Translations under genes and position numbers: made by a program
Notes under the pieces: model-generated
Told to the model about the DNA's origin: nothing
What the model saw: only the letters and a program-made list of their open reading frames with translations
The model's database searches: none
In this document: in pieces, positions 3,297 through 14,535 of the stretch
How the letters are laid out: every line of letters begins with the position of its first letter
Numbering within the stretch: the stretch's first letter is position 1
Origin: Alphaproteobacteria bacterium
GTDB lineage: Bacteria > Pseudomonadota > Alphaproteobacteria > UBA7887
Assembly: GCA_965216755.1 (NCBI GenBank)
Contig: CBDCGL010000011.1
Location: forward strand, 4,576,001-4,640,000
DNA length: 64,000 bases
Reading direction: 5' to 3'

Positions 3297-3337
3297 TTGC
3301 AATTCACTCTGAATTGCGATGAGAATGTGTCGCATTC
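3297..3337 (+). promoter_or_regulatory. Possible iron-responsive operator (Fur/RirA/Irr-like)
   Basis: TTGCAATTCACTCTGAATTGCGA inverted repeat overlapping GATGAGAATGTGTCGCATT just upstream of the porin RBS (GGAGG at 3361); resemblance only. Confidence 0.35.
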
Positions 3338-3372
3338 GCGTGACGACTGTCAGTGCTTTGGGAGGTTGCAGA

Positions 3373-4602
3373 GTGGCGCAAGAACTGAGCGGGACGATCG
3401 CGTTTTGCGCGGCGATGATGCTGGCGGTGCCGGCATCTGGGCAGGATGCGCTGCCGACCCGCGAAGAGATGTGGGCGATCATTCAACAACAGCAGGCCGA
3501 GATCGAGCGCCTGAAGGAAAGGCTGGACATCACCGACGAGAAAGTCGAAGCGGCGGGCGAGATGATCGCGGAAGCGGGCGCCTCATCCGACGGCGGCCAG
3601 CCGGGTTGGTGGGAGCGCACCAGCCTCGGCGGCTATGGCGAACTTCACTACAATGGTGGCGATGTCGACGAATTGGATTTGCATCGATTCGTGCTGTTTC
3701 TGGGGCACGAATTCAACGACCGCTTTCGCCTCGCCACCGAAATCGAAATCGAACACGCTTTGGCCGGAGATGGCGCGCCGGGCGAGGTTGAAATTGAGCA
3801 GGCATTCATCGAATACGACATCAACGCGAACTTCGTGACACGCGCGGGTGTGTTTCTTATCCCCGCTGGCATTTTGAATGAAACGCACGAACCGCCGACA
3901 TTTTTTGGCGTTGAGCGCAATCGCGTCGAGTCGGAAATCATCCCGACAACCTGGTGGGAGGCCGGTGCCGGCCTGACCGGGCGATTTGGTACTGGTCTGA
4001 GCTTCGACGTTGCAGCGACCGGTGGTCTCAACACGCCGATCACGGGCGGCAGTGCTTTCCGAATTCGTAGTGGCAGGCAAAAGGTGGCTGAATCGATCGC
4101 CAAGGATCCGGCCCTGACCGGCCGCCTGCGATGGACCGGCATTCCCGGCGTTGAACTCGGCGTGACCGGGCAATGGCAGTCGGATATCACCCAAAGCCAG
4201 TTGGGCATCTCGGCGGCTTTGGTGGAGGCCCATGCCGACATCCTGATCGATGGCTGGGGCTTGCGTGCGCTTTACGCGCGGTGGAAGTTGGAGGACGGCG
4301 CGCCAGGCACTGGCCCCGCCGCGCTCGGGCGAGACGTTCAATATGGCTGGTATGTCGAGCCGTCATATCGCTTTCCGGTGGCCTCGTGGGGCCAATTGGG
4401 CGTGTTTGCGCGCTATAGCCAGCTTGACAATTTCGCCGGCAACAGTGTTAGCACCAGGGTCAGCCAGTTCGATATTGGCGTCAATTATTGGCCGATCCCG
4501 GATATCGTTCTGAAAGCGGATTTTCAGTGGGCGAAACGACCGGCCGCGATCGCCGCTGACGACGACAATCGGTTGAACGTCGGTATCGGATGGCAATTCT
4601 GA
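3373..4602 (+). CDS. Outer-membrane porin (OprO/OprP-like, iron-operon type) with N-terminal coiled coil
   Basis: Signal peptide from GTG 3373; QQQQAEIERLK coil; GGYGELHYN, HRFVLFLGHEF, EIEIEH, NETHEPPTFFGVERN; C-terminal aromatic GWQF. Confidence 0.8.
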   Translation: MAQELSGTIAFCAAMMLAVPASGQDALPTREEMWAIIQQQQAEIERLKERLDITDEKVEAAGEMIAEAGASSDGGQPGWWERTSLGGYGELHYNGGDVDELDLHRFVLFLGHEFNDRFRLATEIEIEHALAGDGAPGEVEIEQAFIEYDINANFVTRAGVFLIPAGILNETHEPPTFFGVERNRVESEIIPTTWWEAGAGLTGRFGTGLSFDVAATGGLNTPITGGSAFRIRSGRQKVAESIAKDPALTGRLRWTGIPGVELGVTGQWQSDITQSQLGISAALVEAHADILIDGWGLRALYARWKLEDGAPGTGPAALGRDVQYGWYVEPSYRFPVASWGQLGVFARYSQLDNFAGNSVSTRVSQFDIGVNYWPIPDIVLKADFQWAKRPAAIAADDDNRLNVGIGWQF

Positions 4603-5135
4603 TGCGAGCCGTGGCGAGCCGATGGCTCTGGCTTATCTGGCTCGCCGCACTATACCTGGCGCCGGTGGCGTATGGCGAGGAGGTGTATTTAGCGCCCGAG
4701 TTGTTTCTATCGGAAAGCTTCGATGGCGACGTGCCTGACCCCGAGGTCATTTGGGTAACCAAGAGCCTTAAGGGTGATGTCGCCGACATTCGTGGTCATA
4801 GTGGCGGGCCGCGGCGCATTCGCTATTGGGCCTCTGGCCGACGGAGTGCGTGGATACTCGAAGAGATCGGCAAGGTTGAGCCAATCACCACTGGAATCGT
4901 GGTTGATAACGATGCGATTGTGCGCGTGGCGGTACTCATTTACCGGGAGAGCCGTGGATGGGAAGTGCGGCATCCGTTTTTCACCGACCAGTTTATCGGC
5001 GCGCGCCTTGTGGAAGACCGGCGTCTCGATCGACGCGTTGACGGCATTTCCGGGGCAACCTTGTCTGTTGATGCGTTGACCCGTTTGGCCCGGTTGGCAC
5101 TCTATTTGGACAGTCGGGCGAGCGAACAGAGATGA
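4602..5135 (+). CDS. Exported FMN-binding domain protein
   Basis: Signal-like N-terminus; YRESRGWEV and flavinylation-type motif VDGISGATLS. Confidence 0.85.
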   Translation: MRAVASRWLWLIWLAALYLAPVAYGEEVYLAPELFLSESFDGDVPDPEVIWVTKSLKGDVADIRGHSGGPRRIRYWASGRRSAWILEEIGKVEPITTGIVVDNDAIVRVAVLIYRESRGWEVRHPFFTDQFIGARLVEDRRLDRRVDGISGATLSVDALTRLARLALYLDSRASEQR

Positions 5136-5142
5136 GTATCCG

Positions 5143-5886
5143 ATGAGCCGTAGATCCGCGCGCTATCGGCGCGCGGTTTATGTGTGGCACCGGCGGCTTG
5201 GCCTGTGCGCGGCCGCCGTGTTGCTGGTCGTTGCAGTGACGGGTGTGATCTTGAATCACAGCGACCGACTGGGCTTGGCTACACAAACAGTCAGTTGGTC
5301 GCATCTGTTCACGGTCTACGGTATGACCGATGGCGGGCCGACCATAAGTTATCACCTTGATTCAACATGGTTAACTTGGCACGACCAGGCACTTTATATC
5401 GACGGTCGACCGTTGAGTATTCGCCTGAATGACCCAACCGGCGCCGTGGCCACGGCAGATTTTTTCGTTGTCTCGGGCGACAAAGAACTGCTCTTGTTGG
5501 ACCCCGATGGCGTTCTGATCGAAAGGATTTCGGGCGCTGGGCTACCGACTCTGCCGAGCCGCCTTGGTCTTGCCGTTGGCGGCGAGGTCGCGCTCTCCGA
5601 CGGTGGGACCACATATCTTGCCGATGCAGATCTTTTGACTTGGCGTCGTTGGCCGAATGCCGACGTCGTGTGGAGTACGTCAAAAGCTGCGCCTGACACG
5701 TTGGCGGATGCGGTTGCCAAGCATCGCTACGGCGATGGTTTGAGCTGGGAGCGCGTTTTGCTTGATTTGCACAGCGGTCGCTTGTTTGGGTCGCTGGGGC
5801 CCTATGTTGTCGATGCGGCCGGACTTGGAATCGTGATTCTTATCGTGACCGGCGCTTACAACTGGTTCGTGCGGCGCGGGCGATGA
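5143..5886 (+). CDS. PepSY-associated TM helix membrane protein
   Basis: WHRRLGL...VTGVILNH at the N-terminus; LLDLHSGRLFG...TG at the C-terminus. Confidence 0.82.
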   Translation: MSRRSARYRRAVYVWHRRLGLCAAAVLLVVAVTGVILNHSDRLGLATQTVSWSHLFTVYGMTDGGPTISYHLDSTWLTWHDQALYIDGRPLSIRLNDPTGAVATADFFVVSGDKELLLLDPDGVLIERISGAGLPTLPSRLGLAVGGEVALSDGGTTYLADADLLTWRRWPNADVVWSTSKAAPDTLADAVAKHRYGDGLSWERVLLDLHSGRLFGSLGPYVVDAAGLGIVILIVTGAYNWFVRRGR

Positions 5887-5914: not shown

Positions 5915-6225
5915 TGGTGCCGCCGGCGTGAATTGAACACGCGACCCCACCCTTCATACCACGATCACTTTCGTAACCCCGGCGATCCACTGATCACCAG
6001 GTTCGTGGCCTGGACCATCCCTTAGCCGTATCGCCCGTGTGGCGACTTAGGCTCCGCCCGTCTGGCCTCTACACCTTTCCGGCCATCTGCCGGACTTGGC
6101 TCGGGATTGCCATGGGCCGTGTGGCCGTTAGGTTTCCCCGACTTTGAGCGGTACTGTCCCACCGGTTTTCCGATGGGTGGGCAAGTGATTACCAAGGGTG
6201 TGCTCTACCCCTGAGCTACGGCGGC
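5915..6225 (-). tRNA. tRNA-Thr(GGU), split by an intron (exons 6225-6191 and 5954-5915)
   Basis: Joined exons give the 75-nt cloverleaf GCCGCCG TA GCTC AGGGGTA GAGC A CACCC TTGGT^AA GGGTG GGGTC GCGTG TTCAATT CACGC CGGCGGC ACCA, with all four stems paired. Confidence 0.95.
5955..6190 (-). ncRNA. Group I self-splicing intron (IC3, Azoarcus tRNA-Ile-like), 236 nt, no ORF
   Basis: Follows exon U and ends in G. Core: AAAGTCGGGGAAACCTAA, ATGGCAATCCCGAGCCAAG, AAGGTGTAGAGGCCAGACGG, AAGGGATGGTCC. P3 CCGCTC/GGGCGG; P7 GGCCA/TGGTC; IGS CTTGCC pairs with GGT|AAG. Confidence 0.93.
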
Positions 6226-6412
6226 ACATAAATGTTTGCGTACCCGGCGACCGCAAGAAGACGCATCGTCGAGTTAAAGGGACAGTGCCATACGCGCGGA
6301 ATCGGCGCAAGATCCACACGACGTTGGCTGCCATCACAGCGACAAAACTTGACTCAAGTGCGATGAGACGCAATGTGATTCAGGGAAGATAGATCGAACG
6401 AAGGCAAATCCA

Positions 6413-6869: not shown

Positions 6870-8171
6870 GTGGACCGAATTCGTATACGCGGCGGCCAGC
6901 CGTTGCAGGGCACGATCTCGATTGGTGGCGCAAAAAACGCGGCGTTGCCATTGATGGCGGCCACGTTGCTCACCGAAGATATGCTGACCCTCGATAATTT
7001 GCCGCATGTCGCGGATATCGCGACCATGACCGAACTTTTGGTCCAACTTGGCGTGTCGGTTCACATGAACGGCGGCTACGGGCGGACCGAGGATGGCAAT
7101 GGCAGTGCCGAGGGGCGCATGTTGGGCTTGAGCGCCGCCGATCTCATCAACCACACCGCCCCATATGACTTGGTTCGCAAAATGCGGGCCTCTGTATTGG
7201 TTTTGGGACCGCTGCTCACGCGGTTGCGGCGGGCGCGCGTGTCTTTGCCGGGCGGCTGTGCCATCGGACCGCGACCGGTTGACCTGCATCTCAAGGGCTT
7301 GCAGCAGATGGGTGCCGAAATCACGCTCAATGACGGCTATATCGATGCCTCCGCGCCCAGAGGCTTGACCGGTGCCCACATTGCGTTGCCGTCAGTATCG
7401 GTCGGCGCCACAGAGAATTTGATGATGGCCGCGGTCCTGGCCGACGGCGTCACAACGATCGCCAATGCCGCGCGCGAACCAGAGGTCCAAGATTTGGCCA
7501 ATTGTTTGGTCGCCATGGGCGGACAGATCACCGGGATTGGTTCCGATACCTTGGAGATCACCGGCGTGCCACGTCTGACCGGCGCGCAGTATCGTGTCTT
7601 GCCCGATCGTATCGAAACCGGGACGTACGCCATCGCCGCAGCGGTTACCAACGGCGACGTCGAGCTGCTCAATACGGATCTAGACCTGATTGATGCGGTC
7701 GCCGAGAAGCTCACCGACGCGGGAATCCGGCTGACACCCACGGCGCGCGGATTCCGGGTGCGGCGCGACCACCCGCGGATTCGCGGAATAGATTTGATCA
7801 CACAGCCATTTCCGGGTTTTCCGACCGACATGCAGGCACAAATGATGGTTTTGTTGACCGTTGCCGATGGCGCGTCGCTGATCACCGAAACAATATTCGA
7901 AAATCGCTATATGCATGTGCCGGAATTGACACGCATGGGCGCGAATATCACGGTTCACGGCGCCTCGGCGATGGTGCGGGGAACTGACAAGCTGACCGGC
8001 GCGCAAGTGATGGCGACCGATTTGCGTGCCAGCGTATCCCTGGTCTTGGCTGGCTTGGCGGCCGATGATGAAACGGTCATCAACCGGGTGTATCACTTGG
8101 ATCGCGGCTATGAGCGTGTTGAAGAAAAATTGGCCGGGTGTGGCGCCGACATCGAGAGATTGGTCGGCTAA
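6870..8171 (+). CDS. murA: UDP-N-acetylglucosamine 1-carboxyvinyltransferase
   Basis: [23 protein letters not shown] (catalytic Cys), [22 protein letters not shown]. Confidence 0.98.
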
Positions 8172-14459: not shown

Positions 14460-14535
14460 GCCCAGGTAGCTCAGTTGGTAGAGCAGTGGACTGAAAATCC
14501 TCGTGTCGGTGGTTCAATTCCTCCCCTGGGCACCA
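14460..14535 (+). tRNA. tRNA-Phe(GAA)
   Basis: 76 nt GCCCAGG...CTGAAAA...CCTGGGCACCA; U-U mismatches in the anticodon and T stems. Confidence 0.95.

Follow-up and report, generated by a model that had tools for sequence, protein, structure and literature searches.

The window, as we call the whole 64-kb stretch of DNA that was analysed, harbors a tRNA-Thr(GGU) gene on its minus strand (5915-6225) that is interrupted between U36 and A37 by an insert of 236 nt. ARAGORN, when introns are allowed, reports the gene as tRNA-Thr(ggt) c[5915,6225] and the intron as 236 nt long, in agreement with an earlier note on the same DNA that had placed an insert of this length, ending in G, directly after U36. 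The 5' exon closes with ...CCCUUGGU (also written ...CACCCUUGGU), the three bases at its end (6193-6191) pair with the intron in P1, and the 3' exon ends with an encoded CCA. The joined exons make up a regular cloverleaf, with the acceptor stem GCCGCCG/CGGCGGC, the anticodon stem CACCC/GGGUG and the loop UUGGUAA, and removal of the intron restores an anticodon loop of 7 nt, UUGGU followed by AA. As the intron and the 3' exon both begin with AA, the register is ambiguous by two positions at the level of the DNA; 36/37 is the only register that combines a U at position -1, a G as the last base of the intron and a 7-nt anticodon loop. The features of the locus are collected in Table 1, where intron nucleotide i lies at window coordinate 6191 - i.

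Table 1. Features of the split tRNA-Thr(GGU) gene, its intron and the adjacent murA-like gene
Feature	Intron nt	Window coordinates	Strand	Evidence and remarks
5' exon of tRNA-Thr(GGU), 35 nt		6191-6225	-	ARAGORN -i; acceptor strand, D arm, 5' anticodon stem, U33, G34 G35 U36
Group I intron, 236 nt		5955-6190	-	Starts AAUCACUUGCC, ends GGUAUG; without homing-endonuclease ORF
Internal guide sequence CUUGCC	6-11	6180-6185	-	Sequence
P2 hairpin	14-21/26-33	6158-6177	-	Fold; 8/8 pairs with compensatory change
P3, 5' strand	40-45 (partner 132-137)	6146-6151	-	RF00028 and R1 alignments; 100% of cells paired
J3/4, AAAG including AAA	46-49	3' of P3 5' strand	-	Invariant joint (alignment A1)
P4-P5-P5a-P6-P6a domain	50-118	6073-6141	-	RF00028 alignment, pair counts, R1 alignment
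P4	50-55/85-90		-	Hand-drawn structure
P5	59-60/80-81		-	Inside CCUAAC...CAUGG
P5a	65-68/73-76		-	Hand-drawn structure
P6	91-92/117-118		-	Hand-drawn structure
P6a	97-102/108-113		-	Hand-drawn structure
P7, 5' strand: G122, bulged A123, G124-A128 (GGCCA)	122-128 (partner 174-179)	6063-6069	-	Sequence
P3, 3' strand	132-137	6054-6059	-	RF00028 alignment, pair counts, R1 alignment
P8 hairpin, 11-nt-receptor-like motif CCUAAG...UACGG	139-166	6025-6052	-	Fold, pair counts
J8/7 UAAGGGA and P7 3' strand UGGUCC	167-173 and 174-179	6012-6024	-	AAGGGAU invariant in A1
Branched (three-way) P9: P9 stem, 10-bp P9a, P9b with GAAA cap (5969-5972)	183-232	5959-6008	-	Fold
Omega G, last base	236	5955	-	Column invariant, 22/22 (G246 of first sequence)
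3' exon, 40 nt		5915-5954	-	ARAGORN -i; AAGGGUG...CCA: A37 A38, 3' anticodon stem, variable loop, T arm, acceptor strand
murA-like gene (EPSP_synthase family)		6870-8171	+	Pfam PF00275, E 1.5e-103; divergent from tRNA, context marker

Default ARAGORN and the Rfam tRNA model at its gathering threshold both pass over the split gene, each reporting only a tRNA-Phe at 14460 in the window. The earlier expectation that standard annotation would miss this tRNA is thus borne out, and the 236 nt are, as had also been said, free of any homing-endonuclease gene. Two short open frames overlap the 5' exon and extend into the sequence upstream of the gene, one of 81 aa (6128-6373, minus strand), which is probably spurious, and one of 64 aa (6198-6392, plus strand); both could be labelled as hypothetical proteins by gene callers that take no account of the split tRNA.

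A murA-like gene adjoins tRNA-Thr(GGU) in at least 17 of 26 intronless and at least 8 of 22 intron-bearing loci, both counts being lower bounds because the flanks are short in many loci. Since this adjacency is found with and without the intron, the locus is old and the intron is an optional component of it, and the survey upholds the earlier placing of the intron at a core locus, which is conserved and lies next to a murA-like gene. The upstream neighbors (3319-5886, plus strand) encode a phosphate-selective porin O/P-like protein, an FMN_bind domain protein and a PepSY_TM protein. A PepSY homologue is found near only 2 of the 22 other intron-bearing loci.

Structure of the intron and its comparative support

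Within the internal guide sequence, C11, C10 and G9 pair with G34, G35 and U36 of the 5' exon to form P1, with a U36-G9 wobble at the splice site, and C6, U7 and U8 pair with G39, A38 and A37 of the 3' exon to form P10. In the alignment described below, P1 consists of the pairs UG, GC and GC in every one of the 22 Thr(GGU) introns, and P10 is paired in 84.8% of cells. The guide sequence had been described in these terms, GCC facing GGU and CUU facing AAG, and the other elements singled out at that time are likewise in place: P7 as GGCCA/UGGUC and the motifs CCUAAC...CAUGG (P5) and CCUAAG...UACGG (P8) in the sequence, and an extended, branched P9 with a GAAA loop in the predicted fold. In P7, G122-C179, the bulged A123 and G124-C178 are present and invariant, G124-C178 being the putative guanosine-binding pair. 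The insert folds with an energy of -104.1 kcal/mol, compared with -84.3 +/- 5.2 for shuffled sequences, and 0 of 200 shuffles are as low.

The structure from P1 to P10 was drawn by hand and its pairs were counted on an alignment, A1, in which each of 22 Thr(GGU) introns is flanked by 10 nt of either exon. Standard pairs are formed in 90.6% of 1515 cells, and sliding the 3' partners by 1-3 columns lowers this share to 33-46%; these counts include related, non-independent genomes, and the structure, having been drawn from the window's own sequence, is favored over the slid controls. Compensatory changes, on both sides of the pair, are found in 45 of 75 pairs, and none of the measures is attained in even one of 500 shuffles. 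Covariation is heavy in P2, P5a, P6a and P8. In P3, P4, P6 and P7 all cells are paired (100%), and the pairing amounts to 89% in P9b and to 65.5% in P9a, which is poorly aligned. The joints J3/4, J4/5 and J8/7 (AAGGGAU) and the omega G are invariant in A1; 18 of the 22 introns were found by a pattern fixing GGTGTAGAG.C..GACGGGC (GGUGUAGAG.C..GACGGGC), so that in the columns fixed by the pattern the invariance reflects how the introns were selected. The intron displays several features by which group I introns are recognized, namely a P3-P7 pseudoknot with P4-P6 and P8 that is supported by covariation, a U at position -1 held in the U-G wobble of a P1 formed with a guide sequence, and a terminal omega G, and it shares with the bacterial tRNA (IC3) introns the insertion into an anticodon loop.

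The P7 pair C127-G175 is replaced by U-A in 7 of the 22 Thr(GGU) introns, among which P7 takes the forms GGCCA/UGGUC (14), GACUA/UAGUC (7) and GACCA/UGGUC (1). In the 56 Leu and Arg introns P7 is always GACU plus a variable last base, mostly as GACUA/UAGUC, and because all 56 carry GACU, GGCCA is regarded as a derived form that arose within the Thr lineage.

Structures of the Azoarcus intron have led to the view that two peripheral contacts operate in IC3 introns, one between a GAAA L9 and a receptor in P5 and one between a GNRA L2 and a receptor in P8. The window intron has the GAAA loop on P9b, which is shared by 19 of the 22 Thr(GGU) introns by column, with one more misaligned, and it has both receptor-like motifs, in P5 and in P8. 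Its L2, however, is GGAAAAC, which can be viewed as an AAAA tetraloop or a GAAAA pentaloop but not as a GNRA tetraloop, whereas L2 is GNRA in the other 21 of the 22 introns (GAAA in 18; GCAA, GUAA and GUGA in one each). This departure could weaken the presumed contact between L2 and P8. It also lends something to the idea of a genuine intron that is incapable of efficient self-splicing in the cell, either because a protein cofactor is needed or because poor splicing limits the supply of tRNA-Thr(GGU). We regard that idea as unlikely, given that the joints of the core and all of the helices are intact and covarying and that the intron has the same size as, and is homologous to, the introns of tRNA-Leu(UAA) and tRNA-Arg(CCU), which reportedly self-splice in vitro; moreover, a GAAAA pentaloop can mimic the GNRA fold. 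One subclade of A1 (L047, L066, L093 and L098) has a short P8 without the CCUAAG/UAYGG receptor-like motif and a variable L2 (GCAA, GAAA, GAAA and GUAA), a hint that changes in L2 go along with changes in the P8 receptor.

Family membership, origin and distribution

The Rfam group I model RF00028 scores 21.9 bits against the window (gathering score 50; E 0.003 on 751 nt). The match covers 6054-6151, from P3 to P3', and only model positions 50-157; it is the only one in the genome at E <= 10, and at the gathering threshold there is no match in the window or in the genome. Since this score is weak, a family-specific covariance model, R1, was built from the intron cores of 51 tRNA-Leu(UAA) and 5 tRNA-Arg(CCU) genes and from no Thr intron, these 56 being left from 76 candidates after removal of 14 that failed a boundary regex and 6 that were longer than 150 nt. 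R1 matches the minus strand at 6012-6152 along its full length (model positions 1-123 of 123), with 102.6 bits and an E value of 1.4e-22, and the match is unique both in the 64-kb window and in the 5.0-Mb genome. By BLAST, the window intron is 72-76% identical to Leu(UAA) introns over about 170 nt, and by this homology it belongs with the classical IC3 tRNA introns. The check by covariance model that the earlier note had called for has thus had a divided outcome, in that RF00028 stays below its cut-off (21.9 versus 50 bits) while the model made from classical-host introns matches from end to end. The central claim of the note, a group I intron of IC3 type in tRNA-Thr(GGU) at 36/37 with a guide matched to its tRNA, is sustained by the sequence, the pair counts and R1.

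The low RF00028 score, together with the Logan contigs of one sequencing run that break inside the insert, might be taken to mean that the insert is something other than a group I intron, for instance a mobile element, an intron spliced by proteins or an error of assembly. This is scarcely credible in view of the 102.6 bits given by R1, the U at -1 and the omega G at the sole register that restores a 7-nt anticodon loop, and the homologous inserts found at the same site in many independent assemblies.

The spread of the intron is sporadic. Among 22 relatives of the same family, 0 have the Thr(GGU) intron and most show the two exons adjacent to each other; three carry related introns in tRNA-Leu(UAA), tRNA-Arg(CCU) or tRNA-Thr(CGU). 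One same-family locus (L035, G012:C89) has a related intron of 230 nt in tRNA-Thr(CGU), again at 36/37 (UUCGU before the intron, a final G, and then AA). When the class was sampled evenly (401 genomes), 36 genomes gave a BLAST match to the intron, and ARAGORN -i calls most of the hosts Leu(UAA) and Arg(CCU). Five of the 401, from 3 families, have Thr(GGU) as the host: the window's own genome, G035, G141, G296 and G411, the last of these cut by a contig end. A pattern scan of a collection of 185,579 species found at least 108 stretches in at least 80 loci, and among the 80 loci of the matches listed there are at least 18 Thr(GGU) 36/37 introns. The listed carriers include Acuticoccus mangrovi, a Devosia MAG, and MAGs labelled Hyphomicrobiaceae, Bradyrhizobiaceae, Rhodoplanes, Methylobacteriaceae and Rhodospirillales. 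Altogether, Thr(GGU) introns at 36/37 occur in at least 22 alphaproteobacterial genomes besides that of the window, and with 5 of 401 class genomes and at least 18 of the 80 listed loci the rarity of this host that the earlier note had implied is not supported. Because TTGGTA also occurs in the D loop of tRNA-Leu, 59 of the 80 listed loci are tRNA-Leu genes, of which 41 are called Leu(UAA) by ARAGORN, 15 are probable Leu(UAA) under other labels and 3 are Leu(CAA).

A tree of 118 introns unites 21 of the 22 Thr(GGU) introns in one clade (SH-aLRT 96), which lies within the Leu(UAA) introns. With the host-specific ends, which contain the guide sequence, trimmed away, 17 of the 22 remain in a supported clade, and a topology that keeps all 22 together is not rejected (p-AU 0.96). 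The placement is tentative because the branches are long, that of the window intron included. To judge from these trees, the Thr(GGU) introns seem to be a single sub-lineage within the alphaproteobacterial Leu(UAA) introns, and the pattern would fit a guide sequence that was retargeted once, with a later, sporadic spread of the intron to tRNA genes already resident. The exons of the window gene differ from the intronless tRNA-Thr(GGU) genes of same-family relatives at 0 of 35 (5') and 2 of 40 (3') positions, and from those of the nearest intron relatives at 3-4 (5') and 5-10 (3') positions. As the nearest intron relatives are only 73-74% identical to the window intron, and as the exons are closer to those of intronless kin, the evidence points to a gain of the intron alone by a resident gene, perhaps through reverse splicing or recombination, or to an old inheritance with many losses.

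Several observations concern other introns that emerged from these surveys. The Thr(CGU) intron of L035 has a very long branch in the tree and falls outside the grouping of Thr(GGU) introns. Four introns (L032, L059, L072 and L089) form one clade (SH-aLRT 99) although ARAGORN labels their hosts variously as Lys(UUU), Arg(UCG) and Asn(GUU); by the rule of U at -1 and omega G, and by their exons CUGACUU...UAAUCAG, all of them look like tRNA-Lys(UUU) introns, and this conflict means that ARAGORN labels for split tRNAs are unreliable. G141, G296 and G411, which belong to one genus, each have two split tRNA genes, one Thr(GGU) and one grouping with Leu(UAA) introns (L042/L066, L065/L047 and L038/L064), and two members of the second set are mislabelled by ARAGORN as Arg(GCG). 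Two further pattern matches, L110 in a Fimbriimonadaceae MAG and L111 on a plasmid of Bartonella sp., gave no split tRNA with ARAGORN -i in the extracted segment.

The need for splicing

The genome, which comprises 5.0 Mb in 11 contigs and is 99.8% complete, has 52 tRNA genes by ARAGORN, among them Thr(UGU) and Thr(CGU). A second or intronless Thr(GGU) gene is absent from the 11 contigs when searched with ARAGORN with introns allowed, and the question raised earlier of whether this is the only Thr(GGU) gene is answered by the same survey in the affirmative. In 825 open frames with a length of 500 codons or more, of which the last 400 codons were counted, threonine is encoded by ACC (43.0%), ACG (34.6%), ACA (14.8%) and ACU (7.6%), which makes ACC the commonest codon and gives ACC and ACU together 51% of the Thr codons in long open frames. 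Given this share and the lack of any other Thr(GGU) gene, the intron presumably must splice and its splicing would be essential to the cell. Against this need, by analogy with other four-codon boxes, a tRNA-Thr(UGU) modified with cmo5U might read ACU and some ACC. In four other intron-bearing genomes of the class sample, an intronless anticodon-arm motif is found at the level of chance; the three matches among the five genomes searched include no tRNA, the search being blind to a different anticodon stem.

The RNA sequencing runs that were screened for the locus each contained no more than 0.07 of the sampled words. Joints that skip exactly 236 nt were encountered in runs X3 and X15 and considered as spliced RNA, a possibility that was rejected because the flanks of the contigs are unlike those of the locus on both sides; they are intronless tRNA-Thr genes of other organisms. 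Run X21, the kind of which is unknown, matches the flanks exactly and may derive from the source sample, and its Logan contigs stop inside the intron.

A simple scan found no sigma-70-like promoter upstream of the gene, and a scan for terminators returned two terminator-like sites, both on the wrong strand. The missing promoter would suit a decaying pseudogene whose intron no longer splices, with ACC and ACU being read by other Thr tRNAs. This is very improbable, as the exons are identical or nearly identical to those of functional genes in relatives, the elements of the core are undamaged, the same arrangement has been kept in at least 22 other genomes, and no other GGU gene exists to serve the commonest Thr codon, ACC, at 43%.

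We favor, with a probability of about 0.9, the view that the window holds a resident tRNA-Thr(GGU) gene, the only one in the genome, with a 236-nt group I intron of the IC3 lineage that has no endonuclease gene and is spliced. The intron is almost certainly functional, and we infer that it splices in vivo and does so autocatalytically. In such a scheme, the precursor tRNA would be transcribed and the intron would fold into its core of P3-P8 and P4-P6, with the GCC of the guide pairing with the GGU anticodon to produce P1 and its U36-G9 wobble. Exogenous guanosine, bound at G124-C178 of P7, would then attack after U36. Thereafter the omega G236 would take the place of the guanosine, the CUU of the guide would align the AAG of the 3' exon in P10, and ligation of the exons would yield a tRNA of 75 nt with its encoded CCA.

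A bolder and very improbable extension holds that splicing, through its dependence on guanosine and Mg2+, acts as a physiological gate on the decoding of ACC and ACU, and that the Thr(GGU) intron lineage has been kept for this gating and is not a neutral passenger. The intron is the sole route to tRNA-Thr(GGU), which serves about half of the Thr codons, and, were such a gate to exist, the odd L2 could render it sensitive to conditions. The lineage would then represent one retargeting of a Leu(UAA)-type intron, with a derived P7 beside the G-binding site.

Comparison with known systems

The main reading, a spliced group I intron in the sole tRNA-Thr(GGU) gene, has a practical side. With default tRNA finders and Rfam gathering thresholds, the genome seemingly lacks a tRNA for its commonest Thr codon, and annotation pipelines for Alphaproteobacteria need an intron-aware step. 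The evolutionary value of the intron lies in a well-supported lineage of tRNA introns beyond the four textbook hosts, with an alignment of 22 members; the lineage apparently derived once from Leu(UAA)-type introns and spread sporadically, as the 0 of 22 same-family relatives illustrate. The understanding of the group I intron mechanism is left unchanged by the window intron. Although Thr(GGU) stands outside the four classical hosts (Leu UAA, fMet, Ile CAU and Arg CCU), these make up a historical list and not a defining property.

That list has already been greatly extended. Williams 2020 (bioRxiv 10.1101/2020.01.27.920355) mapped 5292 intron-split bacterial tRNA genes and raised the number of settings from 4 (Leu.3Ug, Arg.5Ug, fMet.2Ug and Ile2.5Ug) to 21, of which 17 are new. 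In the notation of that work the 36/37 site is '5Ug', and it is also noted there that GISSD marks the four classical bacterial tRNA introns as IC3 and that a Leu.3Cg type occurs in Proteobacteria. Three loci of our survey (L102, L108 and L139) have tRNA-Leu(CAA) introns with C at position -1 (GACUC before the intron, a final G, and AAAAU after it), which match Leu.3Cg. A bacterial Thr(GGU) group I intron is named in none of the searchable text that was found, and the list of settings of Williams 2020 lies outside that text; the available portions of Hausner 2014 (PMC3984707) and of a 2025 intron database paper (PMC11835236) mention no Thr hosts. A 'Thr.5Ug' is probably among the settings of Williams 2020, in which case the class is already catalogued. 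The arrangement described here is real but not unique, and the window intron adds to a known class of bacterial tRNA introns.

Among the individual systems, one close parallel is with the Leu(UAA) introns of Alphaproteobacteria and cyanobacteria, which share with the window intron a homologous core, a length of 200-260 nt without an ORF, a site in the anticodon loop, the GAAA loop of P9 and the receptor-like motif of P8. They differ in being placed between U34 and A35, whereas the window intron lies between U36 and A37, and the latter has a retargeted guide, GCC with GGU, and GGCCA/UGGUC in P7 in place of GACU plus a variable base. The Azoarcus tRNA-Ile(CAU) intron, which belongs to the same IC3 family, may resemble the window intron in its core. 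The 36/37 site of the window intron is shared by this Azoarcus intron and by the Arg(CCU) intron of Agrobacterium and other Alphaproteobacteria. The Arg(CCU) introns group in the same broad clade as those of Thr(GGU) but form a clade of their own (5 of 6, SH-aLRT 99), and they differ in host tRNA and in guide sequence. Finally, the window intron has the same appearance as the introns mapped in Williams 2020, a weak RF00028 match inside a split tRNA called by ARAGORN and bounded by U(-1) and an omega G.
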